The position numbers and the translations under genes were made by a program. The notes beneath the pieces are model-generated. The model was not told the origin of the DNA. It saw only the letters and a program-made list of their open reading frames with translations, and did not search any database. From contig DASPNQ010000209.1 of the NCBI GenBank assembly GCA_035626435.1, positions 7,623-71,622 on the forward strand: 64,000 bases of DNA, given 5' to 3'. Positions within the stretch are counted from its first letter, which is position 1. The number at the start of each line of letters is the position of its first letter. Positions 1,973 through 29,231 of this stretch are shown here, piece by piece. This DNA comes from Vicinamibacterales bacterium. Its GTDB lineage: Bacteria; Acidobacteriota; Vicinamibacteria; Vicinamibacterales; UBA2999.

Positions 1973-2034
1973 CAGGGAGCTAGGGAGCTAGGGAGCGAGG
2001 GAGCTAGGGAGCGAGGGAGCGAGTAGCTAGTAGC
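1973..2034 (+). repeat. tandem octamer array A: (KAGGGAGC) x6 followed by degenerate GAGTAGC/TAGTAGC units
   Basis: Read directly: CAGGGAGC TAGGGAGC TAGGGAGC GAGGGAGC TAGGGAGC GAGGGAGC GAGTAGC TAGTAGC. It fills the gap between the convergent stops at 1965 and 2027. Confidence 0.95.
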
Positions 2035-2518
2035 TACCAACGCGCGCGAAGGCGTTGAACCCCTTGGACTCGCTGCGGTCGCTGAGGCCCTGGTCGACGC
2101 CGACATCCTCGAATTGAATGGCGTTTGCGCCAATCTCCGCGAGCGCATGCAGCAGCCAATGTCGGCGTTCATCCGGCACGCCGAGCACGGCGATTGCGTG
2201 CGTCGCTTTCGCAAACATGCGCGCGAGCACGCCGCGCATGTAATCCAAATCGGCAGCGCCCGCGAAGGACCGGCAGACGATCACGTCCCAGGGAACGGAA
2301 GGGTCGAGCGTCGAGGCCATGCCGACCTGAAATACCCCTTCCGGCATTGCGGCGATGGCCGTCGCGATTGCGCCGGCCTCTCCGTCGATCCCGCCGACGA
2401 TGTAGCCGTTTCGATGGAAAGGAAAGAGGAAGGCGCCGTCGCCGCAATCGACTTCGAAGATGCGCGTACCGGGTCCGACGTCCAGGACCTCGGCGACATG
2501 TTCCGCCAGCTCGATCAA
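2027..2518 (-). CDS. class I SAM-dependent methyltransferase-like protein
   Basis: 163-aa ORF with a glycine-rich motif-I-like stretch (VLDVGPGT...VDCGDGAF). TTG start lies 1 nt after the stop of the upstream gene (2520), suggesting an operon. Assignment is motif-level only. Confidence 0.45.
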   Translation of the reverse strand: MIELAEHVAEVLDVGPGTRIFEVDCGDGAFLFPFHRNGYIVGGIDGEAGAIATAIAAMPEGVFQVGMASTLDPSVPWDVIVCRSFAGAADLDYMRGVLARMFAKATHAIAVLGVPDERRHWLLHALAEIGANAIQFEDVGVDQGLSDRSESKGFNAFARVGSY

Positions 2519-2519
2519 C

Positions 2520-2957
2520 TTACTTGTCGAGACCGGAGATATCGATAGTGGCGGTGTCGACGGTCACCGACGCCACTTTGGTACCGGCCGGCACGCGGAA
2601 CGGAAAGTTGCACTTGTACTCGGGCACCGAACCCGCGTCGATGATCGACACCGAGGTCTGATAGGTCTTGCCCGACGCGTCCGTCAGAACCGGTTTCTTG
2701 ACAATGGTCTTGGCGTCGAATGCGGGTGTGACCTTGAAGGCCAGCGCCACGACCGCGAACTCGGTGCCCTCGAGGGCGTTGCCGCGGACGCTGTTTTGTC
2801 CCGGCGGGCAATCCACGAGCGCAACGTTCTTGGCGCGCTCTACGCCGATCGGCGTGATGTCGAGGCCTTTGTAGGAGACCGGCTTGGCCGGCTGCGCCGA
2901 CGTGAAGAGCGAAACGTGAAAGGTGAAAAGCAAGCCGGCTACTATTCCACTCTTCAC
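2520..2957 (-). CDS. exported hypothetical protein
   Basis: 145-aa ORF with a GTG start preceded by GGGAGCGGA. N-terminal hydrophobic signal-like segment (IVAGLLFTFHVSLFTSAQP). No recognisable catalytic motif. Confidence 0.55.
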   Translation of the reverse strand: MKSGIVAGLLFTFHVSLFTSAQPAKPVSYKGLDITPIGVERAKNVALVDCPPGQNSVRGNALEGTEFAVVALAFKVTPAFDAKTIVKKPVLTDASGKTYQTSVSIIDAGSVPEYKCNFPFRVPAGTKVASVTVDTATIDISGLDK

Positions 2958-2974
2958 GTTTCCGCTCCCTACGC

Positions 2975-3009
2975 CTTTAACTTTTAACTTTTAACTTTTA
3001 ACTTCCTAG
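2975..3009 (+). repeat. tandem heptamer array (TTTTAAC) x4.5
   Basis: CTTTAAC TTTTAAC TTTTAAC TTTTAAC TTCCTAG read directly. The last unit overlaps the stop codon of the 3006-3827 gene. The first unit lies 18 nt upstream of the GTG start at 2957. Confidence 0.9.
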
Positions 3010-3827
3010 AGCGGCGCATCCGGATTGGCAATCGTCCGCCACATGTGCGCGCTCGGGCTGTTGTCGTTGCCGAGCCCTTCCTTCGGCTGCTTGAAGTGGC
3101 GGCCGATGATGTCTTCGAACGGCTCGATCGACACCTTGGCGTTCGCGTCGAACGCGTAGAGATCGTTGACCGTGACCAGGCGCGGCTCCATGTACCACTT
3201 GTGGTTGCGGAGCATCTTGTAGGTCGCTTCGATGTGGGCTGGCGGTTTGTAGTCTTCGCCGAAAATCCGGTAGTACTGATCGGGATATTCGTAGCCCGCA
3301 TCGAGGTCCGGGTAGAACCGCAGCGTCTGGTGATAGCGGATCGCGAAGGTCGACTTCTCCGGAATGTACGGCTCGAACAGCTGTGCGCCCCACCAGCCGT
3401 GATCCGGCTTGATCAGGTTCAGCACGCAGTCATGCAGCAGGCACGCGAGCGTCACTTCCTCTGACATGCCGGTCTTGAGCGCGCGCGTCGCGCTTTGCAG
3501 CACGTGGTTGGCCGGCGCGAAGCGGAGGCGGAAGAAGTCCTGGAGCGTTGGATTCTTCGGCATCGGCTCGAGCTTCTTGACGTTGCCGCGCGTGTTGACG
3601 AACAGGCTGCCGACGCCGCGGCGATAGTTGCGCGTTTCGATTTGCGCTTCGATTTCGGCGACCGTTGGGAACTTCGGCGGTGCCTGTCCCTGGTTCGCGG
3701 CGACCTGCTCGTCGAGCTGCTCTTCCATCCAGTGCTCGAGGGCGTCGGCCTTGGCTTCCGAGTCCATCATCGCGACGGCCGCCGTGCCTCCGAGGCTGGC
3801 GATGAACGCTCTGCGATCTATTTCCAT
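3006..3827 (-). CDS. Tat-signal HD-domain protein (MIOX-like motif pattern)
   Basis: ATG at 3827 is preceded by GAGGTGGGA. N-terminus MEIDRRAFIASLGGTAAVAMM is a twin-arginine signal. Contains an LLHD (HD) motif, plus IRYHQTLRFYP and VNDLYAFD, which resemble the C-terminal motifs of myo-inositol-oxygenase-type HD diiron enzymes. Confidence 0.6.
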   Translation of the reverse strand: MEIDRRAFIASLGGTAAVAMMDSEAKADALEHWMEEQLDEQVAANQGQAPPKFPTVAEIEAQIETRNYRRGVGSLFVNTRGNVKKLEPMPKNPTLQDFFRLRFAPANHVLQSATRALKTGMSEEVTLACLLHDCVLNLIKPDHGWWGAQLFEPYIPEKSTFAIRYHQTLRFYPDLDAGYEYPDQYYRIFGEDYKPPAHIEATYKMLRNHKWYMEPRLVTVNDLYAFDANAKVSIEPFEDIIGRHFKQPKEGLGNDNSPSAHMWRTIANPDAPL

Positions 3828-3925
3828 GAGTCCCACCTCTACGGCCTACGGCCGCCAGGGGAAACACTACGCCGAGTCCGGCCCTCGTTCAACCGGATCT
3901 TTGTGCTGCGCTGGCGCGTCGCCTG

Positions 3926-4729
3926 CTACTTCACACCCTGACGATGCAGATCGTCGAGCCATCGTTGCGCGAAGGCGCGAGCGGCGTCGGTGGCGGGTTT
4001 TCCGGCCCGAAAAGTCATTTTCCATGCGGCCGGCTTGGCTTCGAGCGTGGGGTCGGCGAACACTTTCTTATCGCCCTTATCGACGAGCTTGGCGTTGAAA
4101 TCGATGTCTTTGGTCGTGTCGAGGAAGTGCCGGAGCCGCATCGCGACCAGCGCTCGCGAGTCAGCCGGATAGACTTTTTCCAGCTCCTGCATCGCCAGAT
4201 CGCGGCTGCGAACCTGCTGGGCGCGTTGTTCACGAAGCACCGCTTCGATTTCCTTGCGGCGCTCGCCTTTTTCCATCTCGTCAAGCTGCCGCCGCATGTC
4301 GGTCCATCCGGCTTCGAGCGTGGCGCGCTGTTCCGGGGTGATCTGATCGAACAGCTTGCGCATCTCGACCACCTGGTTTTCGAACCCGGTGCGCTGTTTC
4401 GCGAATACCTGATCGACGGTTTGCTCGTCCGGCAGCGGGTCGGGGCCGTTCGCTTCGCGATGGTCCGCGTATCGGCGCTTGAAGTCGTCGCTCTCCGCGA
4501 ACGTTCGCGCCATGGTCAGCGCGAAGTTGACGAGCGCGACCCGCGCCGCATCCGGCATGGCGATGAACGCAGCCGGCTTGCCGGCGATTGACACCGCGTC
4601 GGCGACGAAGGAGTCGAAGATTGCTTCCTTGGCGCGCCCTTCGCTAATCCCAAGCGTCGCCAGATGATCCTGCGCCGCGGCCGCGGCCGCGATTACGCAA
4701 ACAAGCGTAACGGTTACGTAAAGTCGCAT
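3926..4729 (-). CDS. exported hypothetical protein
   Basis: 267-aa ORF with a signal-like N-terminus (VTVTLVCVIAAAAAAQ). The rest is helical and charged, with no known motif. Confidence 0.55.
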   Translation of the reverse strand: MRLYVTVTLVCVIAAAAAAQDHLATLGISEGRAKEAIFDSFVADAVSIAGKPAAFIAMPDAARVALVNFALTMARTFAESDDFKRRYADHREANGPDPLPDEQTVDQVFAKQRTGFENQVVEMRKLFDQITPEQRATLEAGWTDMRRQLDEMEKGERRKEIEAVLREQRAQQVRSRDLAMQELEKVYPADSRALVAMRLRHFLDTTKDIDFNAKLVDKGDKKVFADPTLEAKPAAWKMTFRAGKPATDAARAFAQRWLDDLHRQGVK

Positions 4730-4746
4730 AGCAGGGAGTATAGCGT

Positions 4747-4834
4747 TAGGGAGCTAGGGAGCTAGGGAGCGAGGGAGCGAGGGAGCGAGGGAGCGAGGGA
4801 GCGCGAAAGCCGGGGAGCGCGGGAGCCGGGGAGC
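4747..4834 (+). repeat. tandem octamer array B: (KAGGGAGC) x7 plus 4 degenerate units
   Basis: TAGGGAGC x3, GAGGGAGC x4, then GCGAAAGC CGGGGAGC GCGGGAGC CGGGGAGC. Lies between the divergent starts at 4729 and 4951. Confidence 0.95.
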
Positions 4835-4950
4835 GCAAGTCTTGCGATCACGACATGGTTTCTACTGCGCAAGAATTGCGAACAGGTTCGGCGCAAATTG
4901 GTGATCTGCGAACAATTCCGCGTGGCTCGCAGCGTGCATCGACGTGGCGC

Positions 4951-5334
4951 ATGCCCATTAGGTCGTTTCAAGATTTGCTGGTGTGGCAGCGCTCGATGCA
5001 ACTCGCCCAAGACGCCTATCCGATGATCCGTCGGTTGCCTGCGGATGAACGGTTTGAATTGTGTGCGCAGATGCGGCGAGCGGTGGTCTCGACGCCCTCA
5101 AATATCGCCGAGGGCTTCGGCTACGGCTCCACTCGTCGCTACGTCCATCACCTGCGAATCGCACTCGGATCGAATGCCGAGTTTCTCACGCACCTGATGC
5201 CGGCCGAGCGATTACAACTCGTCTCCGCTGACGAGACCAAACCATTAATCGACCATGCGTCGCAAATTGGCCGGATGCTCAACGCGCTGATCCAGTCGTT
5301 GCAACGATATGAACGTGGCTCGCTAGCTCCCTAG
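4951..5334 (+). CDS. four-helix-bundle protein (23S rRNA intervening-sequence protein / Avd-like family)
   Basis: MPIRSFQDLLVWQRSMQLAQDAY...ELCAQMRRAVVSTPSNIAEGFG...HHLRIALGSNAEF matches the TIGR02436/PF05635 pattern (F.DL.VWQ, R...SI..NIAEG, A.GS..E). The tracked ORF starts at 4855, but the family-typical N-terminus is the ATG at 4951. Confidence 0.8.
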   Translation: MPIRSFQDLLVWQRSMQLAQDAYPMIRRLPADERFELCAQMRRAVVSTPSNIAEGFGYGSTRRYVHHLRIALGSNAEFLTHLMPAERLQLVSADETKPLIDHASQIGRMLNALIQSLQRYERGSLAP

Positions 5335-5407
5335 CTGCGCCCAGCTCCCGCGCTCCCTAGCTCCCTAGCTCCCTAGCTCCCTGGCTCCCTGGCTCCCTAG
5401 CTCCCTA
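5318..5407 (-). repeat. tandem octamer array C: 11 units, reverse complement of arrays A/B/D (reads GCTCCCTR on the + strand)
   Basis: GCTCGCTA GCTCCCTA GCTGCGCC, a 2-nt slip, then GCTCCCGC, GCTCCCTA x3, GCTCCCTG x2, GCTCCCTA x2. It starts inside the last codons of the 4951-5334 ORF and ends 5 nt before the helicase stop at 5412. Confidence 0.95.
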
Positions 5408-5411
5408 ATTC

Positions 5412-7082
5412 CTAATTCGCCGGCTTCGACTGAACGGTGACCTTCTGGCCGCGGATCTTGGTTGCTTTCAAGGCGACGATGATTTTTTGCGACACCTCCT
5501 CGGGCACCTCGACGAGCGAGTAGTCGTCGTGCACTTTGATCGCGCCGATCACGCTTGACGGCACCCGCGCTTCGCCGGCGATGGCGCCGACCAGATCGGC
5601 GGGGCGGACGTTGTGTTCCTTACCGACGCTGATTCGCAGCAGCGTCATCGGGCCCGCGTCGCGAGTCGCAGCCGGACGCCGTTCGCGCTGCGGTCCGCGG
5701 TCGTCATAGCGGTCGCGTGAGCGCGTGTCGGGTTCCGTTGCGACGTCGGCAATGGCGCGCTCAGACCCGTCGCTGGCGAGCGCGATCGCGGCCGCGGCGA
5801 CATCCATCAGATCGAACTCGTCGGCGAGCTCCTGCACCAGCTCGCGGGTCAGTTCAAGGCCGCCGGCGGTAATCCGCTCTCGCAGAGCGTCCTTGGTCGC
5901 TTCCATGCGGCGCTTGCGCAGGTCCGCCTCCGTCGGCAGCTTGCCGATCTCGATCTTCTGCTTGGTCAAGCGCTCGACGAATTGCAGAAACCGCTGCTCG
6001 CGTGGCGATACCAGCGTGATCGCGACGCCCTCGCGGCCAATGCGCCCGGTGCGGCCAATGCGATGGACGTAAACTTCAGGCGCCGTGGGTAGATCGAAAT
6101 TGACGACGTGGGAGACGTGCTCGATGTCCAAGCCGCGCGCGGCGACGTCGGTCGCGACGAGAATCTCGGATTGTTCGCTGCGGAACCCCTGCATGACGCG
6201 ATCGCGCTGTTTCTGCATCATGCCGCCATGCAGTGCCTGCGCGCCGTAGCCGTGGGCGTTGAGGGTGTCGGTGAGCTCGTCGACTTCGATGCGGGTGCGG
6301 CAGAAAACGATCGCCGACTTGGGGCTCTCGAAGTCGAGAATCCGGCTGAGCGCGTTGATCTTCTGGCCCCTGCCGACGATGTAGGCAACCTGGCGCACTT
6401 GCGGTAACTTGCCCGCGGCGCGTTTCTCCTGCGCGATCTGCACCTTCTTCGGACTCTTGAGATGCCGTCCGGCGATCGCCATGATCCGCGGCGCAAACGT
6501 CGCGGCAAACAGCGCTGTCTGGCGGGTCGCCGGCGTCTCGTTCACGATCGCGTCGATGTCTTCCGCGAAGCCCATGTCGAGCATCTCGTCCGCTTCATCG
6601 AGCACCAGCACCTTCACCTCGCCCAGCTGCAGTGTCCGCCGGCGCAGATGATCGAGCACGCGACCCGGCGTCCCGACGACGATGTCGGCGCCGCGGCGCA
6701 AGGCGCGGATCTGGTGATCCATCGGCGCGCCGCCGTACACCGGCACGACGACGAGGTTCGAGCCTTTGGCGTATTTATGGAGCGCCTCGGCCACCTGCAT
6801 CGCCAGCTCGCGCGTCGGCACTAACACCAGCGCGCGCGTGCGCCCGCGATCGGCCTTGCCGTCTTTGGACAGGGTATCGAGCAGCGGCAGTGCAAACGCG
6901 GCGGTCTTGCCCGTGCCCGTCGCGGCCTGGCCGAGCATGTCGGCGCCGGACAGCAAGGTGGGAATCGCTTCGCGTTGAATGGGAGTGGGTTCTTCGTAGC
7001 CCAGTGCGGCGACCGCAGCCACGAGGGCGTCGGTTAGACCGAGTGACGCAAATCCAGCCGACTCGGCCGAAGGATTCTTCAT
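5412..7082 (-). CDS. deaD: DEAD-box ATP-dependent RNA helicase with DbpA-type C-terminal RNA-binding domain
   Basis: 556 aa with a Q-motif region (TPIQREAIP), AATGTGKTAAF (Walker A), VLDEADEML (DEAD), ARGLDI and HRIGRTGR. The C-terminal ...LLRISVGKEHNVRPADLVGAI... resembles a DbpA/DeaD RNA-binding domain. Confidence 0.92.
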   Translation of the reverse strand: MKNPSAESAGFASLGLTDALVAAVAALGYEEPTPIQREAIPTLLSGADMLGQAATGTGKTAAFALPLLDTLSKDGKADRGRTRALVLVPTRELAMQVAEALHKYAKGSNLVVVPVYGGAPMDHQIRALRRGADIVVGTPGRVLDHLRRRTLQLGEVKVLVLDEADEMLDMGFAEDIDAIVNETPATRQTALFAATFAPRIMAIAGRHLKSPKKVQIAQEKRAAGKLPQVRQVAYIVGRGQKINALSRILDFESPKSAIVFCRTRIEVDELTDTLNAHGYGAQALHGGMMQKQRDRVMQGFRSEQSEILVATDVAARGLDIEHVSHVVNFDLPTAPEVYVHRIGRTGRIGREGVAITLVSPREQRFLQFVERLTKQKIEIGKLPTEADLRKRRMEATKDALRERITAGGLELTRELVQELADEFDLMDVAAAAIALASDGSERAIADVATEPDTRSRDRYDDRGPQRERRPAATRDAGPMTLLRISVGKEHNVRPADLVGAIAGEARVPSSVIGAIKVHDDYSLVEVPEEVSQKIIVALKATKIRGQKVTVQSKPAN

Positions 7083-7107
7083 CCTTCAACGTTACTTCAT
7101 CACTAAT

Positions 7108-7195
7108 CCGGGGAGTTTGGGGCTAGGGAGCTAGGGAGCAAGGGAGCTGGGGAGCGAGGGAGCTGGGGAGCGAGGGAGCGAGGGAGCTAGGGTGA
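7108..7195 (+). repeat. tandem octamer array D: (NRGGGAGC) about 9-11 units (clear core 7124-7195)
   Basis: TAGGGAGC TAGGGAGC AAGGGAGC TGGGGAGC GAGGGAGC TGGGGAGC GAGGGAGC GAGGGAGC TAGGGTGA, preceded by two degenerate units. It ends 2 nt before the permease stop (7197). The clear core starts 42 nt upstream of the helicase start (7082). Confidence 0.95.
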
Positions 7196-7196
7196 A

Positions 7197-9989: not shown

Positions 9990-9995
9990 CGACGC

Positions 9996-10331
9996 CTACG
10001 ATTCGAGGAGCAGTTTGTCGACCAGACCGGCGAGCCGCCGCCATTTCTCGGCTTCCTTCGCGAGCGCGCGCTCGCCGGATTTGGTCAGGACGTAGAACTT
10101 GGCCTCGCGGTTGCTTTCCGTCTTGCCCCAGGACCCTTTGATCCATCCCTTGTGCTCCAGGCGCACTAACGCTGGATACAGCGTGCCCTGGTTGAGCGAC
10201 AGCGGATGATCGGCCACCTGAGCGAGGCGCGCCGCCAGTCCGTACGCGTGCTGCGGCCCCATGGTGGACAGCGCCCGCAGGATGATCAAATCCAGGGTTC
10301 CCTGGAGGAGCTCGACTTTCTCGCCGGACAT
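9996..10331 (-). CDS. PadR-family transcriptional regulator
   Basis: 111 aa. LLQGTLDLIILRAL...HAYGL...LYPALVRLEHKGWI...W is the PadR winged-helix pattern. Directly upstream of an ADOP permease, as in the Acidobacterial PadR/ADOP pairing. Confidence 0.9.
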   Translation of the reverse strand: MSGEKVELLQGTLDLIILRALSTMGPQHAYGLAARLAQVADHPLSLNQGTLYPALVRLEHKGWIKGSWGKTESNREAKFYVLTKSGERALAKEAEKWRRLAGLVDKLLLES

Positions 10332-10333
10332 GC

Positions 10334-10369: not shown

Positions 10370-10472
10370 AGTACGGCGTGGGCGCAAGGACGGGTTCGCG
10401 CTACCATCGGGGGCAGCCGCGGGCCGCCGCACGACAGGTGCGCCGGCCGCCGCAGCGCCAGACGGATATCTG

Positions 10473-11804: not shown

Positions 11805-11834
11805 CGTCCGTCGAACGCGCCGGCCCGCAGACAC

Positions 11835-13316: not shown

Positions 13317-13317
13317 C

Positions 13318-16503: not shown

Positions 16504-17310
16504 ATGACGAGACGATTGGCAATTCTTTCGGCGGCGTTCGTGCTGACCGCGACCGTTGCATCCGCACAGGCCACGACGACCGGGCAGAAGCCGTTCGAGC
16601 CGCAGGTTGGCCAGGCCGGCAAGGACGTGGTCTGGGTGCCGACCCCGCAGGCGGTAGTCGACAAGATGCTCGACATGGCGCAAGTCACCAGTAGCGACAC
16701 GGTGATCGATCTCGGATCGGGCGACGGCCGCACGGTGATCACCGCCGCCAAGCGCGGCGCGCGTGCCTATGGCATCGAGTACAACCCGGACATGGTGGAG
16801 CTGTCGAAGAAGAACGCGGCGGCGGCGGGCGTCACCGATCGGGCGACGTTCATCCAGGCCGACCTGTTCGAATTCGTGAAGGGCGATCAGTTCAAGAACG
16901 CGACCGTCATCACGATGTTCCTGCTGCCGTCGATCAACATGAAGCTGCGGCCCACCATTCTCGATCTCAAGCCGGGCACGCGCGTCGCCTCGAACACCTT
17001 CACGATGGAAGACTGGCAGGCCGATGAGACGGCGACGGTCACCGACGGCTGCTCGAGCAGCTGGTGCACGGCGCTGTTCTGGATCGTGCCGGCGAAGGTT
17101 GCCGGCACGTGGAACACGCCCAACGGCGCGTTGACGCTGACGCAGAACTTCCAGATGCTGAGCGGCACGCTTGGCAACCAGGCCGTTCAGGGCCGCCTGC
17201 GCGGGAACGAGATCACGCTGACCGCCGGCAATCAGAAGTGGTCGGGCGTCGTCGACGGCAGCACGATCAAGTTCTCCGCGCCGTCGGCGATGACCGCCAC
17301 CAAGAAATAG
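16504..17310 (+). CDS. signal-peptide-bearing class I SAM-dependent methyltransferase-like protein
   Basis: ATG 16504 is preceded by GGAGA. N-terminus MTRRLAILSAAFVLTATVASAQ is Sec-signal-like. Motif I is VIDLGSGDGR, followed by GIEYNPDMV and FIQADLF. Paralogous to the 33680-34207 gene. Confidence 0.7.
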   Translation: MTRRLAILSAAFVLTATVASAQATTTGQKPFEPQVGQAGKDVVWVPTPQAVVDKMLDMAQVTSSDTVIDLGSGDGRTVITAAKRGARAYGIEYNPDMVELSKKNAAAAGVTDRATFIQADLFEFVKGDQFKNATVITMFLLPSINMKLRPTILDLKPGTRVASNTFTMEDWQADETATVTDGCSSSWCTALFWIVPAKVAGTWNTPNGALTLTQNFQMLSGTLGNQAVQGRLRGNEITLTAGNQKWSGVVDGSTIKFSAPSAMTATKK

Positions 17311-17422
17311 GTGCCAAAGTGCCAAGGTGCCAAGCGGTGCGACGGTGCCGCCTGGCACCTAGGTGTTGGCACTGTGGCACCCGCACCCCTTTGGCACCGT
17401 GGCACTTTTGGCACGTTGGCAC
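17311..17422. repeat. inverted pair of octamer arrays: (GTGCCAAN) x3-5 facing (TTGGCAC/TGGCAC) x7
   Basis: GTGCCA at 17311, 17319 and 17327, then GGTGCG and GGTGCC. Centre GGTGCC-GCCT-GGCACC (17344-17359). TGGCAC at 17353, 17367, 17375, 17392, 17400, 17409 and 17417. Starts 1 nt after the stop at 17310. Confidence 0.9.
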
Positions 17423-17648
17423 TTAGAATCCTGCAGAAACCAGCCTAATTCGACTGATTAGAACAATCGTTTAAGACGCGCGCCGATTCAGGTCTTGGCA
17501 CCGTTGTCTACGATTGTCTCGAAAGGTCTTATCTTCTTGCCCCATCTATGCTTACGGGCGATTGGGTGTATATTTTCCACAGGTTCAAGTAGGACGCCGA
17601 GACAGCACTTCGGGGTCCTTGTTCTTCGTGCGTTTGGGGATGTTCGAA

Positions 17649-20147
17649 ATGAAAAGCGCCGGCGTCATTTCCTTCGGCACCGTGGTCGCGTGCCTGGGAC
17701 TGGTCACTGTTCTCGCGGCCCAACAGGGCGCGCCCGTGGCGAAATCACCGGCGCCGGCGAAGCGTGTGACCGCGACGAAGCCCGCGGTGTCTCATCCCTC
17801 CGGGCCGGCGCCCGTCACGCGTGCGGCCGCTCCCGCCACTGACTACAACGCGCTGGTGAAGCAGTACTGCACGAACTGCCACAACGATCGCAACAAGGAT
17901 CGCGCCGGAAGCCTGACGCTCGCGTCGTTCGACATCGCAAAGGTCGGCCAGCATGCCGACGTTGCCGAGCGGATGATTCGCAAACTCCAGGCGAGCATGA
18001 TGCCGCCGCCGGGTATGCCGAGACCGGAGCCCGCGGTCTATCAGAGCTTCATTCGCGCGCTCGAAACCGGCGTCGACGCCTACGCGAAGGCGAATCCCAA
18101 TCCGGGCGGGCGGCCGTTCCAACGCCTGAATCGTCCGGAGTACGCGCGCGCGATTCGCGAGCTGCTCGCGCTCGAAGTCGATCCGGGCAAGTGGCTGCCG
18201 CTCGACACGATGAGCGCGAACTTCGACAACATCGCCGATGAACAGGCGCTGTCGCCAACCCTGCTCGAGGCGTATTTGAACGCTGCGGCCGATATCAGCC
18301 GCATGGCGGTCGGCGACAAGAGCGCGCCGTCGATCGACGTCACCTATACCAACCCGACCTACATGTCGCAGCACCCGTGGGATCACGTCGAAGGCGCGCC
18401 CTTCGGCACGCGCGGCGGCATCGTCGTCAACCACGTCTTTCCCGCTGACGGCGAATATCAATTCGAGATGACGTTCAACTCGGGCGAGAACACCCGCTTC
18501 GAGGACATCGACGTGTCGATTGACGGCCAGCGCGTCGCGCTCGTCGCCTACGAGCTGCTCAACATCGCCGGCGCGGACGGCCGCGGCCAGACGCCGCTGC
18601 GCACGGAACCGATTCTCGTGAAGGCCGGCCAGCGCAAGGTCGCGGCCGCGTTCATCAAGAAAATCGACGGGCCGTACGAGGATTTGATCCGCCCGCACGA
18701 ATGGTCGTACGCGGGCGGTGGTTCGGGCGGCGCCGGCATCACCACGCTGCCGCACATGGGCGACCTGATCATCCGCGGGCCGCTCAAGACCACCGGCATT
18801 TCGACGACGCCGAGCCGGCAGAAGATTTTTTCGTGCCGGCCGACCGCGGCCACCAACGAGAGTGCGTGCGCCCGACAGATCATCGCCAAGATCGGCGGCG
18901 AAGCGTATCGCCGTCCGCTGGCGCCGAATGAAGTCGAACGGCTGATGCCGTTCTACGACGCCGGCACCAAGAAGGGCGGCTTCGAGATGGGCGTGCGCTC
19001 GGCGCTCGAAGCGATCCTCGCCAGCCCGCATTTCATTTTCCGCATCGAGCGGGCGCCCACCGACGCCCGTTCGGGCGGCACCTACCGCCTGAGCGACATC
19101 GACCTCGCGTCACGGCTGTCGTTCTTCCTGTGGGGCTTGCCGCCCGACGAGGAGTTGATCGAGGCCGCGACCCGCCGCGAGTTGTCGACGCTTGCCGGCC
19201 TCGAGAAGCACGCGCGCCGCATGCTGGCCGATCCGCGCAGCCAGGCGCTCGCCGATCGTTTCGCGGCGCAGTGGCTGCGGCTGCAGGACGTCGACAAGGT
19301 TCACCCCGATCCGAACTTCTATCCGAACTTCGACGAGAACCTCGCCTCGGCGATGCGCACCGAGACGAAGATGTTCTTCAACAGCCTCGTCAAGGACGAC
19401 CGCAGCATCATCGAGCTGCTGACCGCGGACTACACCTTCGTCAACGAGCGGCTCGCCCGCCACTACGGCATCAACGGCGTCGTCGGCCGCGAGTTCCGCC
19501 GCATCACCTATCCGGATTCGACACGGCGCGGCATCCTCGGCCATGGCACGATGCTGGTGCAGACGTCGCTCGCGAATCGCACCTCGCCGGTACTGCGCGG
19601 CAAGTGGGTGATGGAAGTGCTGCTTGGCACGCCGCCACCGCCGCCGCCCCCAGACGTCCCGGATCTCGAGGCCGCGGGCGAATCGAAGGAAGGCCGCCTG
19701 CTGACGACGCGCGAGAAGATGGAAATCCATCGGAAGAATGCGACGTGCAACAGCTGCCACCGCTTCATGGATCCGATCGGCCTGGCGCTGGACAACTTCG
19801 ACGTCACCGCCAAGTGGCGCGTCCGCGAAAACGGCATGCCGCTCGACACCACCGGCGACTTCTACGACGGGTCGAAGGTGACGTCGCTGCCGGAGCTGGT
19901 CACACTGCTGGCCAAGCGGCCGACGCCGCTGGTGCGCAACTTCACCGAGAACCTGATGGCCTACGCGCTCGGCCGCCGCGTCGAGTACTTCGACCAGCCG
20001 GCGATTCGCGCGATTGCCAAGAACGCGGAAGCGGCGAACTACAAGATTTCGTCGTTCATCCTCGGCGTCGTCAAGAGCGACGCATTCAGGATGCGGCGGG
20101 TGGAACCAGACACGACAACGACCGAAACGAAGGCTAGTGGACGCTAA
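17649..20147 (+). CDS. DUF1592/DUF1588-family protein with N-terminal cytochrome c motif
   Basis: ATG 17649 is preceded by GGGGA (17640 also possible). Signal peptide, heme-binding CTNCH motif, a poly-Pro run (GTPPPPPPPDVPDLE) and a second CNSCH motif. Large architecture of the planctomycete/acidobacterial DUF1587-1592-1595-1588-1585 family, which is always paired with DUF1552. Confidence 0.8.
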   Translation: MKSAGVISFGTVVACLGLVTVLAAQQGAPVAKSPAPAKRVTATKPAVSHPSGPAPVTRAAAPATDYNALVKQYCTNCHNDRNKDRAGSLTLASFDIAKVGQHADVAERMIRKLQASMMPPPGMPRPEPAVYQSFIRALETGVDAYAKANPNPGGRPFQRLNRPEYARAIRELLALEVDPGKWLPLDTMSANFDNIADEQALSPTLLEAYLNAAADISRMAVGDKSAPSIDVTYTNPTYMSQHPWDHVEGAPFGTRGGIVVNHVFPADGEYQFEMTFNSGENTRFEDIDVSIDGQRVALVAYELLNIAGADGRGQTPLRTEPILVKAGQRKVAAAFIKKIDGPYEDLIRPHEWSYAGGGSGGAGITTLPHMGDLIIRGPLKTTGISTTPSRQKIFSCRPTAATNESACARQIIAKIGGEAYRRPLAPNEVERLMPFYDAGTKKGGFEMGVRSALEAILASPHFIFRIERAPTDARSGGTYRLSDIDLASRLSFFLWGLPPDEELIEAATRRELSTLAGLEKHARRMLADPRSQALADRFAAQWLRLQDVDKVHPDPNFYPNFDENLASAMRTETKMFFNSLVKDDRSIIELLTADYTFVNERLARHYGINGVVGREFRRITYPDSTRRGILGHGTMLVQTSLANRTSPVLRGKWVMEVLLGTPPPPPPPDVPDLEAAGESKEGRLLTTREKMEIHRKNATCNSCHRFMDPIGLALDNFDVTAKWRVRENGMPLDTTGDFYDGSKVTSLPELVTLLAKRPTPLVRNFTENLMAYALGRRVEYFDQPAIRAIAKNAEAANYKISSFILGVVKSDAFRMRRVEPDTTTTETKASGR

Positions 20148-20159
20148 AGGGAGAAGCCG

Positions 20160-21575
20160 ATGAATTTCCTGACTGGCAAGCAGATGGAACGCCGCAAGTT
20201 CCTGCGCGGCGCGATGGGCGCCGCCGTGGCGTTGCCGTTCCTCGACGCGATGGTGGCCGCGAAAGGTGTCGGCAAGGCGGCGGTCGCGGGCGCGGATCGG
20301 ACTCGATTCATCGCCATCGAAGAGGTCCACGGCCTCGCCGGCTGCAACAAGTGGGGCGCGACCAAGCACCTGTTCGCGCCGGCGGAAGTCGGCTCGAACT
20401 TCACGTTCGCGCCGGACAGCGCGCTCGCCTCGCTCGAGCCGTATCGTCAGCACTTGACGATCGTCTCGAACACTGACGTGCGCATGGCCGAGGCGTTTAC
20501 CGCGCCAGAGATCGGCGGCGATCACTTCCGATCGAGCGCGGTGTTCCTGACCCAGGCGCATCCGAAGCAGACGCAGGGATCGGACATCTGGGCCGGCACG
20601 TCGTTCGATCAGCTCTACGCGCAGAAGTACGGGCAGGAAACGCCGATGCCGTCGATGCAGTTCTGCATCGAGAACCTCGACCAGGCCGGCGGCTGCACCT
20701 ACAACTATTCGTGCGCCTACACGGACTCGATCAGCTGGGCGTCGCCCAACGAGCCGCTGCCGATGATCCGCGATCCGCGCGTCGCGTTCGACATGCTGTT
20801 CGGTTCCGGATCGTCGAAGCAGGATCGCGCCGACCGCCGCGTCACCCGCCGCAGCATCCTCGACTGGGTGCAGGGCGAGGTCGCGACGATCAAGCGCGAG
20901 CTCGGCCCCGGCGATCGCACGCGGCTCGACCGCTACCTCAGCTACGTGCGCGAGATCGAGCGCCGCATCCAGGCGATCGAAGCCCGCAACACCAGCGGCG
21001 AAGAGCGCGCCCTGCCGGACGCGCCGGCCGGCGTGCCCGACTCGTTCTCCGAACATATGCGCCTGATGTTCGACCTGCAGGTGCTCGCGCTGCAGACCGA
21101 CATGACGCGCATCATCACCTTCAAGACCGGCCGCGACTCACAGAACCGCGTGTTCCCCGAAAGCGGCTCCCTCCAGCCGTTCCATCCTGCGTCGCATCAC
21201 GGCGACCGCGAGGATCGGATCATGGAGTTCAACAAGATCACGAAATACCGCGTCAGCCAGGTCACCTACCTGGTCGACCGCCTGAAGGAAATCACCGAAG
21301 GCGACAAGACGCTGCTCGACAAGACCATGGTGGTGTGGGGCTCGCCGATGGCGGACCCGAACGTGCACAACCATCGCCGGTGCCCGCTGTTCCTGCTCGG
21401 CCACGCCAATGGCGCGCTGAAGGGCAACATGCATATCCGCGCCGCTGCCGACACCCCGATGGCCAACGCCTTCCTGACGATGGGCCACATGCTCGGCATG
21501 GATGACATGAAGCAGTTCGGCGATTCGACCGGCGAGCTGTCGCTCAACCAGGCGTCGCCGACCACCGCCGCCTGA
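20160..21575 (+). CDS. DUF1552 domain protein (Tat signal)
   Basis: SD GGGAGAAG. N-terminus MERRKFLRGAMGAAVALPFL is a twin-arginine signal. 471 aa, immediately downstream of the DUF1592 gene, which is the conserved pair. Confidence 0.8.
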   Translation: MNFLTGKQMERRKFLRGAMGAAVALPFLDAMVAAKGVGKAAVAGADRTRFIAIEEVHGLAGCNKWGATKHLFAPAEVGSNFTFAPDSALASLEPYRQHLTIVSNTDVRMAEAFTAPEIGGDHFRSSAVFLTQAHPKQTQGSDIWAGTSFDQLYAQKYGQETPMPSMQFCIENLDQAGGCTYNYSCAYTDSISWASPNEPLPMIRDPRVAFDMLFGSGSSKQDRADRRVTRRSILDWVQGEVATIKRELGPGDRTRLDRYLSYVREIERRIQAIEARNTSGEERALPDAPAGVPDSFSEHMRLMFDLQVLALQTDMTRIITFKTGRDSQNRVFPESGSLQPFHPASHHGDREDRIMEFNKITKYRVSQVTYLVDRLKEITEGDKTLLDKTMVVWGSPMADPNVHNHRRCPLFLLGHANGALKGNMHIRAAADTPMANAFLTMGHMLGMDDMKQFGDSTGELSLNQASPTTAA

Positions 21576-21588
21576 GGTTCGCATGGAG

Positions 21589-21607
21589 GCGGGTCTTCCG
21601 GACCCGC
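21589..21607 (+). terminator. intrinsic-terminator-like hairpin
   Basis: GCGGGTC-TTCCG-GACCCGC followed by TTCTCGTTT, 14 nt after the DUF1552 stop. Confidence 0.5.
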
Positions 21608-21643
21608 TTCTCGTTTGGACGATCGATTTTTCGGAGAGCCGAA

Positions 21644-23473: not shown

Positions 23474-23540
23474 GTCGCGTTCGCCGTTCGGCGTTGGCCG
23501 CGCCAACTCTCGAGCGTCCCATTCCTACGAAGGAGCCCGT

Positions 23541-24707
23541 GTGCCTGAAATGACTCGTCGTGATGTGATCAAGACTGGCGTGGCAGCAGCAGCACTTGGT
23601 GCGGCTTCGAATTTCGACTGGATCCTGCCGGCGCTCGCGCAGGGGGAAGTCGTCGTTCCGTTCACCGACTCGCACCAGAATTTCAATCCGACGCCCGCGC
23701 CCGACCGCCGCTTGCTCGATACGCGGACGGTGAGCGGCCCGTTCACGCCGAAGGATCAGTTCTTCACCACGCAGCATTACGGTCACCCGGAGATCGATCC
23801 GGCGGCGTTCCGCTTGAAAGTCTCCGGTCTCGTCAATACCTCGCTGGCATTGTCACTGGACGATTTGCGCAAGATGGGCAACAGCGAGCTGATCGCCGGA
23901 TTCGAATGCTCAGGCAATCGCCGGCCGGTGCAAGGGTTGATCGGCAACGGCCGTTGGACGGGCGTGCCGCTCAAGACCGTGCTCGACAAAGCCGGTCTCA
24001 AGTCCAACGTCCAGGAAATCGTGTTCTTCGGCGCGGACCGCGGCAAGGAATCGGTCGCGTTCCGCGGCACGAACTACGACGTCGAGCAGCAGTATGGACG
24101 CAGCCTGCCGCGAGCGCGTGCGCTGGCCGCGGAGCCGGCGCCGTTTCTCGCCTATGCGCTCAACGGCGAGCCGTTGACCAAACATCAAGGCGCGCCGCTG
24201 CGTCTGATCGTGCCCGGCTGGTACGGCGCACCGAACGTCAAGTGGCTCTCCGAGATCGTCGCGCAGGAAGATCCGTACATGGGCAAGTTCCAGACGCACT
24301 GGTACCGGACGCTGAAGGGCGAAATGATCAACGGTGAGATGAAGTGGGTCGAGACCGGGATCACCCACCTCAATCTCAAGTCGTTCGTCGCGCGCGTCAC
24401 GAAGAATGGCGCCGCGCACAAAGCCACGGTAATCGTGCTCAACGACGGCACCCCGATCAAGAGCGTCGAAGTGCAGGTTGATGGCGGCGCCTGGCAGCCG
24501 GCAAAGCTGGATCCCGCGACCACCGCAAAGTATGGATGGAAGCTGTATCACTGGGATTGGCCGAACGCGGCGGCGGGCGAACACACCATCGTGTCGCGCG
24601 TCACCGACGCGACCGGCAAGGTGCAGCCGACCGAGAAGGAGCTCGAGAACAAGAAGACGTTCCTCGAGGACAACTCGCAGCATCCACGGAAAATCACGAT
24701 CGCGTAG
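23541..24707 (+). CDS. sulfite-oxidase-family molybdopterin oxidoreductase (SorA-like), Tat signal
   Basis: GAAGGAG lies 5 nt upstream of GTG 23541. MTRRDVIKTGVAAAALGAAS is a Tat signal. Has the FECSGNRR molybdopterin-binding cysteine motif and a C-terminal Ig-like dimerisation-domain pattern. Confidence 0.8.
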   Translation: MPEMTRRDVIKTGVAAAALGAASNFDWILPALAQGEVVVPFTDSHQNFNPTPAPDRRLLDTRTVSGPFTPKDQFFTTQHYGHPEIDPAAFRLKVSGLVNTSLALSLDDLRKMGNSELIAGFECSGNRRPVQGLIGNGRWTGVPLKTVLDKAGLKSNVQEIVFFGADRGKESVAFRGTNYDVEQQYGRSLPRARALAAEPAPFLAYALNGEPLTKHQGAPLRLIVPGWYGAPNVKWLSEIVAQEDPYMGKFQTHWYRTLKGEMINGEMKWVETGITHLNLKSFVARVTKNGAAHKATVIVLNDGTPIKSVEVQVDGGAWQPAKLDPATTAKYGWKLYHWDWPNAAAGEHTIVSRVTDATGKVQPTEKELENKKTFLEDNSQHPRKITIA

Positions 24708-24711
24708 CGGC

Positions 24712-24753
24712 GCGACGGCGGTCTCGCCGCCGCGCGCGGGTTTCGCGACCCGC
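24712..24753. terminator. two GC hairpins between convergent genes
   Basis: GCGACGGCG-GTCT-CGCCGCCGC (one mismatch) and GCGGGT-TTCGCG-ACCCGC (24736-24753) lie between the stops at 24707 and 24756. Confidence 0.35.
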
Positions 24754-24755
24754 TG

Positions 24756-27161: not shown

Positions 27162-27258
27162 GAAAATATGCCCTCGCTGTATCCGAAGCTCGCCAGATCG
27201 TCGCCGGCGGCCGAATGCAACAGGCTAAGGACGCATGCGAGCGCTCTTACCAGGGCCA

Positions 27259-27369
27259 TAGCTTTCCGCCGTGAATCTCCCGAGGAAATTCGGGGCCGTG
27301 CAGGTGCAGCACAACCGCGGCGCCAACAATACCAACGGCCGCCAGAAGCAGCAATTTGAAACGGGTCAT
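27259..27369 (-). CDS. possible small membrane peptide (36 aa)
   Basis: Hand-translated ORF, too short for the supplied track: MTRFKLLLLAAVGIVGAAVVLHLHGPEFPREIHGGKLWPW. One hydrophobic helix, 97 nt upstream of the permease gene. No further support. Confidence 0.25.
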
Positions 27370-27414
27370 GAGGGCAGGGTATCGAGTCCCCCCTGAACGA
27401 GTGGTGAAGGCGCC

Positions 27415-27431
27415 GTTCAGCTGCAGTTCAG
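27415..27431 (+). promoter_or_regulatory. direct repeat GTTCAG-N5-GTTCAG (11-bp register) upstream of the OmpR-family regulator
   Basis: GTTCAG at 27415-27420 and 27426-27431. A related GTGAACAG lies at 27440-27447. An 11-bp direct-repeat register is typical of OmpR/PhoB-family boxes. Speculative. Confidence 0.25.
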
Positions 27432-27475
27432 AAAACAGGGTGAACAGTTATGAGTCAGGAGTTTAGAGTTAACCC

Positions 27476-28138
27476 TTGCGAATTCTGGTGATTGAGGACG
27501 AAGTTCAACTCGCAGCGCAGCTTACCCGCACGCTGGGCGACGCCGGCTACGCGGTCGATCACGCTGCTGACGGCGAACGCGGGGAGTTTCTCGGCCGGAC
27601 CGAGGGCTATGACGCTGTGATCCTCGACCTGGGACTTCCGAAAATGGACGGACTCACTGTGTTGCGGCAATGGCGCGAAGCCGGTCTGGCGATGCCCGTG
27701 CTGATCCTGACCGCACGCGGCAGCTGGCACGAGAAGGTCCAGGGCATCGACGGCGGCGCCGACGATTATGTCGCCAAGCCGTTTCAAGTCGAAGAGGTAC
27801 TGGCGCGTTTACGCGCGCTGATACGACGATCGAGCGGCCAGGTCACGCCGGAGCTACGGTGTGGCCGAGTGGTGCTCGATCCGCGCGGCGCCCGCGTCTC
27901 GGTCGATGGCGTTCCGGTCAAGCTGACCAGCCACGAGTTCCGCGTCCTTTCGTACCTGATGCACCATCGCGGCCGCATCGTCTCGCAGTCGGAGCTCACC
28001 GAGCATATCTATTCGCAGGGCTTCGATCGCGATTCGAACACCGTCGAAGTCTTCATTGCGCGGCTGCGCCGCAAGCTGGGTGGAACGTTCATCGAAACGG
28101 TGCGCGGCATGGGTTATCGGATCGAGGCCGGCAACTGA
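27476..28138 (+). CDS. OmpR-family response regulator
   Basis: TTG start. MRILVIEDE...DAVILDLGLPKMDG...LTAR receiver domain plus a C-terminal winged-helix (LTSHEFRVLSYLM...VEVFIARLRRKL...TVRGMGYR). Confidence 0.92.
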   Translation: MRILVIEDEVQLAAQLTRTLGDAGYAVDHAADGERGEFLGRTEGYDAVILDLGLPKMDGLTVLRQWREAGLAMPVLILTARGSWHEKVQGIDGGADDYVAKPFQVEEVLARLRALIRRSSGQVTPELRCGRVVLDPRGARVSVDGVPVKLTSHEFRVLSYLMHHRGRIVSQSELTEHIYSQGFDRDSNTVEVFIARLRRKLGGTFIETVRGMGYRIEAGN

Positions 28139-29133
28139 TGGTGTCGCTGCGCGCGCGGGTGTTCCTGGGCGCCCTGCTGTGGAGTCTTGGACTGTTTCTC
28201 GGCAGCGGCATGATCCTCACGCACTACATGCTGTTCGTGCCGCAGGCCCCAGGGATTTTTCACGGTTTCTTCATCCACTACATGTACGCGATCTTCATCG
28301 TCACCATCGCCAGCATGGTGATCGGCCTGCGCCAGGTGCGCAAGGGGCTTGCGTCATTTGATGAATTACGCGCGCGATTGCCGGGCGTTCGCGAGGGCAA
28401 GCAATCGCGTCTCGACGGCGAATATCCGTCGGAGGTGCAGCCGTTGGTGAACGACCTCAACGCGTTGCTCGCCGATCGTGAGCAGCGCATTACGAAGGCG
28501 CAACTGAAAGCTGGCGATCTTGCGCACGGCTTGAAGACACCGCTGACGCTGCTGAATCAGCAGGCCGAGCGGGCGCGGGAGGGTGGGCAGCGGGAGCTGG
28601 CCGCCGCGATCACGCAGCAGATCGAGCGGATGCGCCGCCAGATCGAGTACCACCTCGCGCATGCGCGCGCGTCGGCGGCGGGCGGCACACCTGCCGCTCG
28701 CTGCCATGTCCTGACGTCGGCCGACGCGTTGGCTCGGACCATGCTGGCGTTGCACGCCGAGCGGTCGCTCAGCCTCGATTGCAACGTGTCGCACGAGCAT
28801 TTCGTCAGAGCGCAACGCGAAGACTTCGAGGAGATGCTCGGCAATCTCGTGGACAACGCCTGCAAGTGGGCTCGTTCGCGCGTTACCGTACAGTCGACGC
28901 TGGAGGGCGGCAGCATCACGACGACGGTGGATGACGACGGGCCGGGGCTGGCAGATGCGTTGCGGGAGACGGTATTACAGCGCGGCGTCCGGGCCGACGA
29001 AGCCGCGCCCGGTTCCGGGCTCGGCCTCGCCATCGTCGCCGATCTGGTCGAGTTGTACGGCGGCACCATCACGCTGACATCGTCACCGCTTGGCGGACTC
29101 CGCGCCATCCTGCGGTTGCCATCGGCATCGTAA
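28138..29133 (+). CDS. sensor histidine kinase (partner of the preceding regulator)
   Basis: The ATG overlaps the regulator stop (TGATG). Two N-terminal TM helices, H-box DLAHGLKTPLTLL, N-box VDNACKWA, G-boxes DDDGPGL and GSGLGLAIV. The upstream part of the tracked ORF (from 27670) is an out-of-gene extension. Confidence 0.88.
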   Translation: MVSLRARVFLGALLWSLGLFLGSGMILTHYMLFVPQAPGIFHGFFIHYMYAIFIVTIASMVIGLRQVRKGLASFDELRARLPGVREGKQSRLDGEYPSEVQPLVNDLNALLADREQRITKAQLKAGDLAHGLKTPLTLLNQQAERAREGGQRELAAAITQQIERMRRQIEYHLAHARASAAGGTPAARCHVLTSADALARTMLALHAERSLSLDCNVSHEHFVRAQREDFEEMLGNLVDNACKWARSRVTVQSTLEGGSITTTVDDDGPGLADALRETVLQRGVRADEAAPGSGLGLAIVADLVELYGGTITLTSSPLGGLRAILRLPSAS

Positions 29134-29143
29134 GCAGCTAACG

Positions 29144-29231
29144 CTGCCTGACTGCCTGACTGCTTGACTGCCTGACTGCCTGACTGCCTGTCTGCCTGTC
29201 TGCCTGTCTGCCTGTCTGCCTGACTGCCTGT
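29144..29231 (+). repeat. tandem octamer array (CTGCCTGW) x11
   Basis: CTGCCTGA x2, CTGCTTGA, CTGCCTGA x2, CTGCCTGT x4, CTGCCTGA, CTGCCTGT. Starts 11 nt after the kinase stop (29133) and ends 2 nt before the stop of the convergent gene (29233). Confidence 0.95.

Follow-up and report, generated by a model that had tools for sequence, protein, structure and literature searches.

The 64,000-nucleotide (nt) stretch of a Vicinamibacterales genome analysed here (contig DASPNQ010000209.1; hereafter the window) raises a simple question: why are several of the short gaps between its genes filled with tandem arrays of 7-8-nt units? A preliminary description had attributed these arrays to a lineage-specific process seeding them at gene 3' ends, had taken them for an undescribed repeat class, and had missed the gene that is bracketed by two of them, named here arrays B and C. 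This gene encodes a four helix bundle (4HB) protein of the S23p / 23S rRNA intervening-sequence (IVS) protein family. [quoted passage not shown] We think it probable that they were recently added to the genome, and that one family, with the unit KAGGGAGC, is organised around an IVS-like hairpin cassette carrying the 4HB gene. This reading is built on the arrays, their polymorphism among strains, their absence from orthologous spacers, and the architecture of the cassette, which is found well beyond the window. Taken as a whole, the interpretation given in the preliminary description is partly supported.

Arrays B and C are inverted around the 4HB gene (cassette 4748-5407) and can form a stem of roughly 100 bp, with a calculated folding energy of -356 kcal/mol (z -12.6). 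An inverted-repeat search detected 69-73 nt of complementarity between B and C at 82-88%; for the terminal repeats of the stem around the ORF, its overall range was 69-87 nt at 82-91%. Array C is just as complementary to array D, over 87 nt at 83% (7105-7191), 1.7 kb away across the helicase gene. The start codon of the 4HB gene at 4951 is probable, and the resulting 127-aa product agrees with independent gene calls (P0001). The protein matches Pfam family PF05635 over its full length (E 4.5e-30) and TIGR02436, named "four helix bundle protein" (E 1.2e-30); it also matches the solved structure of XCC0516 (PDB 2gsc, E 1.2e-14). The GC content at third codon positions (GC3) is 0.67 in this gene, compared to 0.76-0.82 in the neighbouring genes. 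The gene lies on the strand opposite to the flanking DEAD helicase and 267-aa open reading frame (ORF); the equivalent place in the relative L212 is an operon-like spacer of 118 nt.

The same organization was observed around other members of the family. Four separate homologues with retrievable context are all bracketed by inverted arrays of 5-7-nt units, and the unit is different each time: GTTAGAT / CTAAC, AGGGGGA / CTTCCC, AGGGCCG / CCCTCGG and AGTGGTT / ACTAACC, ACTAACC varying from 4.7 to 15.7 copies among contigs. A scan of metagenomes with the family alignment yielded 80 loci, and in 59 cases the gene had 200 nt or more of sequence to its left and right. Complementarity between the upstream and downstream flanks exceeded every mismatched control in 51 of these 59 homologues. 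Tandem Repeats Finder located arrays within 160 nt of the 4HB ORF at 65 of 89 loci, and the periods of these ORF-adjacent arrays (n=93) are 7 (74 arrays), 8 (14), 6 (4) and 10 (1). Stem length in the metagenomic cassettes spans 22 to 120 bp around a median of 36.5 bp. Their arms show a strong polarity, with G 804 / C 262 in the 5' arm and C 794 / G 276 in the 3' arm. Heptamer arrays are adjacent to 19 of the 32 homologues found on IMG/VR viral contigs, and CTGCCTG/GCAGGCA, a heptamer related to the CTGCCTGW unit of the window, constitutes the arms of a 4HB cassette at locus L132. In Azospirillum lipoferum 4B AZO_p2 (L223, NC_016586.1 13689-15430), a 23S rRNA gene (Rfam LSU model, 1120 bits) contains a PF05635 ORF, missing from the annotation table of the plasmid, between arms made of five CRGAGGA units and their complement. 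This element is a true 23S rRNA IVS. PF05635 genes are thus typically bracketed by inverted 7-8-nt arrays on chromosomes, plasmids and viral contigs, in cas operons and in rRNA genes. Their presence in CRISPR-Cas operons (Table 1) may be the reason that surveys score PF05635 as "CRISPR-associated". Insertion of such genes in cas operons was reported earlier, the repeats being unmentioned (PMC3936711), and we did not find the link between PF05635 and inverted arrays in the accessible literature. At another locus (L128, 1262-2883), an IS630-like (DDE_3) transposase gene stands between AGGGGGA arrays of 15.9 and 5.6 copies, the shorter one being the 5' arm of a 4HB cassette; it seems that this insertion sequence divided an AGGGGGA array or inserted into it.

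Table 1. Arrays and associated features of the window, followed by 4HB genes with array arms on finished plasmids
Feature	Position	Strand	Unit, copies or size	Context
Array A	1974-2036	+	KAGGGAGC x6, degenerate AGCTAGT tail	alone; convergent spacer, COX4 stop 1965 / 163-aa gene stop 2027
TTTTAAC array	2976-3004		TTTTAAC x4.1 (gene strand GTTAAAA), 100% matches	alone; between 276-aa gene stop (3006) and 145-aa gene start (2957)
Array B	4748-4835	+	KAGGGAGC x11	G-rich 5' arm of hairpin cassette
Leader	4836-4950	+	115 nt	arm B to probable 4HB start codon; within hairpin loop
4HB gene (S23p / 23S rRNA IVS protein family, Avd-like)	4951-5334	+	127 aa	stop inside array C
Array C	5318-5407	-	GCTCCCTA / GCTCCCTN x11, KAGGGAGC on minus strand	C-rich 3' arm of hairpin cassette
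Array D	7111-7192	+	KAGGGAGC x10	between MacB-like gene stop (7197) and DEAD helicase start (7082)
ORF-less hairpin	17309-17424		GTGCCAAN x3 (17309-17334), 55-nt centre, TTGGCAC x4 (17390-17424)	first base in methyltransferase stop codon
CTGCCTGW array	29144-29230	+	CTGCCTGW x10.9, 94% matches	alone; convergent spacer, histidine-kinase stop 29133 / small secreted-protein ORF stop 29233
Genes scanned around the cassette				COX4, DEAD helicase, MacB-like permease, methyltransferase, uncharacterised ORFs
Anabaena 90 pANA02 (L221)	between cas6 and cas4		GGTGACA x9 / CTGTCAC x4	finished plasmid
Nostoc punctiforme			GGGTGTR / CCCTACA	finished plasmid
Riemerella			AAGGTTY / AACCTTR	finished plasmid
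Picosynechococcus PCC 7003 (L225)	between cmr2 and cmr3		GGAGATA / TATCTCC	plasmid

The 64-kb window was scanned with Tandem Repeats Finder and by direct reading of the letters, and both recovered the array families of the preliminary description. The window contains six exact runs of three or more copies with period 7 or 8, compared to none in 100 Markov-1 simulations. The two-copy TACGGCC, which had been counted among the arrays, is at chance level: nine two-copy duplications of period 7 were seen for 7.0 expected. Matches to GGGAGCNNGGGAGC number 28, for 0.7 expected, and are confined to 1975-7187. Correspondingly, the KAGGGAGC arrays occupy four loci, all within 1974-7192 and at most 3.3 kb from the 4HB gene. 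Tandem Repeats Finder detected no array of period 7-8 beyond 29.3 kb of the window. All eight arrays lie in spacers of the gene map, drawn from ORFs and GC3; the sole overlaps with ORF ends are at the edges of A and C. Scanned for Rfam families and tRNAs, the window gave no match, to rRNA or to any other family.

The arrays are polymorphic. The window is about 99.8% identical to MEGAHIT contigs of ENA metagenomes, and these differ from it in array length. Array A has one additional unit in strain contig L002, array D has seven more in L001 and three more in L002 (range 10 to 17 units), and the GTGCCAA arm of the hairpin at 17.3 kb has one more in L216. No length change was seen for B, C and TTTTAAC in the 2-3 contigs compared, TTTTAAC being identical in L001 and L002. 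The differences between independent assemblies consist exclusively of whole units, an instability of the intergenic arrays that is compatible with the earlier interpretation.

We then compared the spacers with those of relatives. In L212 and L213, whose DEAD helicase is 80-82% identical, the gene order is kept (DEAD, 267 aa, 273 aa, 149 aa, 165 aa, COX4), and the syntenic loci contain neither a 7-8-nt array nor a 4HB gene. The conserved order without arrays or 4HB gene points to a recent gain. The spacer between COX4 and the convergent gene measures 61 nt in the window, with array A, and 12 nt in L212 or 36 nt in L213; that between the 276-aa and 145-aa genes measures 48 nt, with TTTTAAC, and 0 nt in both relatives. 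Similarly, the DEAD/267-aa spacer that houses the cassette is 682 nt long, compared to 118 nt in L212, and the MacB/DEAD spacer with array D is 114 nt long, compared to 9 nt in L214. Array-free orthologous spacers in relatives thus range from 0 to 118 nt, and the arrays "fill" the spacers of the window because the added DNA makes up most of each of them. In L214 (13314-13426), an unrelated octamer, GGTCTTGA x15, occupies the slot of TTTTAAC between genes of 271 and 144 aa, so that units differ by lineage.

The sequence of the units also bears on their proximity to gene ends. Near 4HB genes (flanks L132-L211 and L123-L131), 30 of 48 3'-arm units contain a stop codon, for 10.6 expected from letter-shuffled units. 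A stop-bearing unit with a period of 7 or 8 places stops in all three frames, and ORFs therefore end at the array edges. The tightness against stop codons follows from this property of many units and from the large share of each spacer that the arrays occupy; in practice, arrays create or terminate spurious ORFs. The distances given in the preliminary description hold to within 1-2 nt, but several of the exact values do not. Array A begins 8 nt past the stop 1963-1965, and the convergent stop 2027-2029 falls within its tail, as described. Array C does begin within an ORF end, where it supplies the stop of the 4HB ORF (5332-5334), but it terminates 4 nt, not 5, before the DEAD helicase stop 5412. 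The TTTTAAC array, reported to overlap a stop, abuts it, ending 1 nt before 3006-3008; the GTGCCAA array, reported to begin after a stop, overlaps it (17308-17310). Array D ends 4 nt and not 2 nt from the stop at 7197. The CTGCCTGW array ends 2 nt before the stop at 29233, as noted, and begins 10 nt rather than 11 nt after the stop 29131-29133. The general statement that arrays run from stop codon to stop codon applies to three of the seven spacers (A, C and CTGCCTGW), whereas the spacers of TTTTAAC, D and GTGCCAA have a stop at one end and a start at the other, and that of B has starts at both.

To place the arrays in a wider context, we scanned one genome per GTDB species for exact (AGGGAGCN)3 and obtained at least 119 loci. 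The matches listed include Acidobacteriota, Gemmatimonadota, Planctomycetota, Bacteroidota, Cyanobacteria, Actinomycetota and others, and among the groups represented are Acidobacteriaceae, Gemmatimonadales, Phycisphaerae, Planctomycetia, Bacteroidales, Nostocales and Streptomyces. A lineage-specific process, as first proposed, does not fit this distribution. In these listed matches, to which the following counts also refer, the unit occurs at many loci of single metagenome-assembled genomes (MAGs), and Tandem Repeats Finder added at least 104 arrays whose units are unrelated and whose period is 6-9. The periods at these loci are dominated by 7 (49 arrays) and 8; those of 5, 6 (7 arrays), 9 and 10 (4 arrays) are almost absent. 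The existence of several families constrained to 7-8 nt, noted from the window, therefore extends to related loci. Nine inverted pairs of the same unit without an ORF were also found, and all of them are G-rich then C-rich. The spacer types were counted with a GC3-based gene caller, which is crude and lets many arrays be swallowed into extended ORFs, so that the counts are indicative only: AGGGAGC arrays are distributed over tandem, convergent and divergent spacers as 34/12/9, compared to 413/111/111 in the background, and arrays of other units as 41/9/5. These counts show no enrichment in convergent spacers, and thus do not agree with the seeding by slippage at 3' ends that had been suggested. 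Arrays are found after stop codons as frequently as before start codons.

Heptamer and octamer repeats in bacterial genomes have been known since 1990 and surveyed since 2007. As related in PMC4679880 and PMC4692102, Mrazek (2007) reported heptanucleotide repeats as the most abundant long SSRs of most genomes and proposed polymerase slippage. MacGregor (2015) described intergenic TAACTGA arrays common to Beggiatoaceae, Cyanobacteria and Bacteroidetes, "with no mechanism evident"; these arrays are concentrated just 5' of start codons, place stops in all frames, and are missing from relatives with the same gene order (PMC4679880). The GGGAATC arrays of Xanthomonas are 89-93% intergenic, at a mean of 28 nt from the nearest ORF, and are of variable length; 16% lie between convergent ORFs, with 70-75 convergent inverted pairs (Rehm et al. 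2015, PMC4692102). PMC6749651 is a further source for the properties of the class. The window arrays show the features by which long SSRs are recognised: a unit of 5-11 nt repeated beyond chance, an intergenic position, variation by whole units and, for KAGGGAGC, presence at several loci. The class had thus already been reported, in Nostoc, Xanthomonas and Beggiatoaceae, when the arrays were taken for a new one. Two exclusions made at the outset remain valid. The arrays are tandem 7-8-nt units and not the 20-40-nt imperfect palindromes of repetitive extragenic palindromic (REP) sequences or of their mosaic elements (BIMEs), and they are contiguous 7-8-mers without spacers, not the 23-50-nt repeats with unique spacers of CRISPR.

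The predicted RNA structure of the arrays was examined by folding. No self-structure was found for array A (z -0.6) or for array D alone (z 0.1), and the TTTTAAC array is also unstructured when folded. The CTGCCTGW array shows weak periodic self-pairing (-21.8 kcal/mol, z -5.1). No terminator-like site coincides with an array in the window, and a terminator role for the stand-alone arrays was ruled out on this basis and from their lack of structure. The 17309-17424 element folds into a hairpin of -72.4 kcal/mol (z -6.6), and its opposite strand is equally stable. Of the features that define a miniature inverted-repeat transposable element (MITE), inverted arms were seen in it, whereas no direct duplication flanks it in the sequence and the window holds no second copy. 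Its loop contains no 4HB remnant. Two other origins or roles were considered for the arrays. Target-site-duplication footprints were rejected, the arms being inverted rather than direct, and mimicry of ribosome-binding sites by AGGGAG was dropped, its orientation to the genes being inconsistent.

These data lead us to propose the following scheme. The arrays would be recent additions of DNA to otherwise minimal spacers, and strand slippage is the most likely cause of their whole-unit changes in length. In transcripts of either strand, arms B and C would pair to a duplex of about 100 bp, with the insert as its loop. From the example of IVS elements, this duplex would probably be cut by RNase III, and such cleavage would make the cassettes tolerated inside operons and rRNA. 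The GTGCCAA/TTGGCAC element is a hairpin of this kind without an ORF. A, D, TTTTAAC and CTGCCTGW stand alone, and any link between them and the cassette is conjectural. By analogy, the cassette would account for the hairpin at 17.3 kb, while these four are placed in the known repeat class only.

Several findings weigh against a central role of the cassette. Among the listed (AGGGAGCN)3 matches a 4HB gene is present in only 4 of 119 loci, adjacent to the array in all four. A relaxed search with hidden Markov models (HMMs) detected no 4HB remnant in the loops of the ORF-less inverted pairs, and gave no support to the idea that these pairs are decayed 4HB cassettes. The mismatches of 50 stems show no wobble bias (G:U 89 vs A:C 97). 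This gives no signal of RNA-level selection: selection for an RNA duplex on the sense strand is not demonstrated, and pairing at the DNA level or recent homogenisation fits equally. Since A, D and TTTTAAC are unstructured and no terminator-like site falls at an array, the cassette explains B, C and the 17.3-kb hairpin and not the stand-alone arrays, and it leaves the period of 7-8 unexplained. On plasmid 1 of Gemmatirosa kalamazoonensis (L220, NZ_CP007129.1 ~1007586-1007921), the C-rich octamers CTGCGCTC / CTCCTGCC flank a 4HB match in the same orientation; upstream there may be a small G-rich/C-rich hairpin distinct from these octamers. The copies of Nostoc 7120, beside a transposase gene, have no clear 5' arm. 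As for arrays located farther from the 4HB gene in related loci, the unit of the arm was matched in 7 of about 36, the others being mostly of different units; local spread from the cassette was thus ruled out as a general rule, though it fits the window.

Other explanations were weighed against this reading. It is possible, if rather unlikely, that all arrays including B and C are neutral by-products of slippage, the geometry of the replicative polymerase favouring 7-8 nt and the adjacency of the 4HB gene having no function; arrays would then survive only between genes, since a unit of 7 or 8 nt shifts the reading frame. This would agree with whole-unit length changes between near-identical strains, with the intergenic position of every array, with the slippage proposal attributed to Mrazek (2007) in the two papers cited above, and with stand-alone arrays that have no structure and, being absent from orthologous spacers, are dispensable. 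However, four arrays of a single unit in 5.2 kb, and the presence of this unit at more than 100 loci of many phyla, are not what independent local events would produce. Neither does slippage account for PF05635 flanks that are complementary in 51 of 59 cases, with units varying by lineage and a fixed G-rich-to-C-rich polarity, nor for stop codons in 3'-arm units at three times the shuffled frequency. We see little likelihood that the arrays are cis-regulatory elements, in DNA or mRNA, whose copy number tunes the flanking genes as in phase variation. Their sequence is compatible with such a role, as (AGGGAGCN)n with n of at least 4 matches the quadruplex pattern of at least four G3+ tracts spaced by 1-7 nt, for A, B and D in the plus strand, for C in the minus strand. 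GGGAATC repeats form quadruplexes in vitro and are mostly transcribed in Xanthomonas (PMC4692102), heptamer deletions alter reporter output in Nostoc (bioRxiv 10.1101/2022.06.06.494920), TAACTGA arrays cluster upstream of start codons, and 28 nt separate array D, with its 10 to 17 units, from the start codon of the DEAD helicase downstream of it. Yet the TTTTAAC, CTGCCTGW and GTGCCAA families do not have the sequence required for a quadruplex, placement after a stop is as common as before a start, relatives manage without arrays, and the orientation is inconsistent, with three arrays (A, B and D) on the plus strand and one (C) on the minus strand, next to genes of either orientation.

Two further possibilities concern the origin and the reality of the arrays. 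The lineage-specific seeding of an undescribed class at gene 3' ends is, in our view, very improbable. At least one stop codon is touched in six of the seven array-bearing spacers, and relatives at about 80% protein identity have no arrays, as this explanation would predict; but arrays of the same unit and of other 7-8-nt units occur in many phyla, the class is already in the literature, convergent spacers show no enrichment, and start codons border B on both sides and D on one. That the arrays are artefacts of short-read metagenome assembly, an outcome by which the preliminary description was prepared to be refuted, is hardly credible. The source contigs are indeed MEGAHIT k141 assemblies, one strain contig stops just beyond array D, and many 4HB contigs are shorter than 2 kb. 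But the window arrays, at 29-90 nt, are below k and spanned by single k-mers, three to four independent assemblies recover them with whole-unit differences only, and the same array types are present in long-read MAGs, whose contigs reach Mb scale, as well as in finished genomes and plasmids of cultured strains. On these grounds the arrays are real, hypervariable loci. Strain contig L002 terminates 40 nt past array D, and most contigs with 4HB homologues are 0.5-2 kb long; short-read assemblies seem to be interrupted regularly at such arrays, so that cassettes would escape MAG-based surveys.

Two observations in the window are of separate interest. Three close palindromes of the TTACGTAA(T) type (ATTACGTAAT) at 44229-44269 lie directly upstream of the point where an AAA-ATPase-like gene (minus strand, 43058-44227) starts, and look like a candidate operator for a dimeric regulator. 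In addition, the region 17475-21575 of this acidobacterial (Vicinamibacterales) genome encodes PSD/PSCyt domains (DUF1592, DUF1588, DUF1585, DUF1595 and DUF1587) together with DUF1552, which are often treated as planctomycete markers.

Three puzzles overlap in the window and in about 200 related loci: the nature of heptamer/octamer repeats, the role of PF05635 and the spread of 23S IVSs. To our knowledge, the only role known for the very large family PF05635 (S23p, "four helix bundle protein") is that of Avd in diversity-generating retroelements. One speculative extension, which we judge unlikely, is that the S23p protein and the 7-8-nt arrays constitute one system, like REPINs with RAYTs or Avd with a polymerase, the protein acting in trans on arrays of its own unit by binding them, promoting their expansion or copying them to new spacers. 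If this were true, the heptamer and octamer repeats of many phyla would be dispersed cis elements of the S23p protein and the 23S IVS one of its landing sites; a very large orphan family would gain a function, and the excess of heptamers and their sharing across phyla a mechanism. Processing of the stems by RNase III, binding of the protein to the repeats and co-variation of unit type with the paralogue are hypotheses that can now be tested.

The cassette can be compared with several known systems. REP units are 20-40-nt imperfect palindromes, and RAYT is a Y1 transposase with known DNA-cleaving activity; these systems were the subject of studies by Nunvar (2010), Bertels and Rainey (2011) and Ton-Hoang (2012). 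As in REPIN-RAYT, copies of a short repeat stand inverted on the two sides of one protein gene and recur in many other spacers of the genome, singly or in inverted pairs. The repeats here are, however, tandem 7-8-mers, and the flanked gene matches PF05635 only and not an IS200/IS605-like Y1 transposase; we know of no catalytic function of the 4HB protein. With Avd of diversity-generating retroelements it has a fold family in common, but the likeness is weak (PF22296 bAvd, E 2.6e-06; NF033474, 29 bits for a cut-off of 80). No reverse transcriptase was found among the flanking genes scanned, template and variable repeats not having been searched for.

The arrays most closely resemble the heptamer long SSRs (the long SSRs of Mrazek, the short tandemly repeated repetitive (STRR) sequences of cyanobacteria, TAACTGA, and GGGAATC/GGGGAYT of Xanthomonas and Nostoc). 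Both consist of 7-8-nt units arranged head to tail in 3 to about 20 copies, nearly always between genes and tens of nt from an ORF end, with several unit families per genome. Units common to distant phyla, lengths that vary among close relatives, array-free syntenic relatives, convergent inverted pairs and units that give stops in all frames are also shared. The window differs in its predominance of octamers (KAGGGAGC, CTGCCTGW, GTGCCAAN), heptamers being usual elsewhere, in its acidobacterial (Vicinamibacterales) host, which is outside the coverage of the papers on these repeats, and in the link of the arrays to PF05635 genes, which appears in none of them. This link is what is new beyond the known repeat class: heptamer and octamer arrays serve as arms of IVS-like PF05635 cassettes across phyla.

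The cassette itself is closest to the 23S IVSs of Leptospira, Coxiella, Brucella and Xanthomonas, in which a PF05635 ORF is likewise looped out by a long stem of terminal inverted repeats. The Coxiella IVS, described as a selfish element, has its S23p ORF looped out by a terminal stem of 28 bp, which RNase III cuts, with GACAGAT heptamers in 2-3 strain-variable copies at the mapped cleavage site (PMC4990558). The window element lies between protein-coding genes and not in helix 25 or 45 of 23S rRNA, and its arms are plain tandem arrays of about 88 nt, compared to the 28 bp of Coxiella. The tandem heptamers in the IVS arms of Coxiella and Azospirillum nevertheless have their counterpart in these arrays, and the patchy distribution that the cassette shares with IVSs suggests horizontal transfer.

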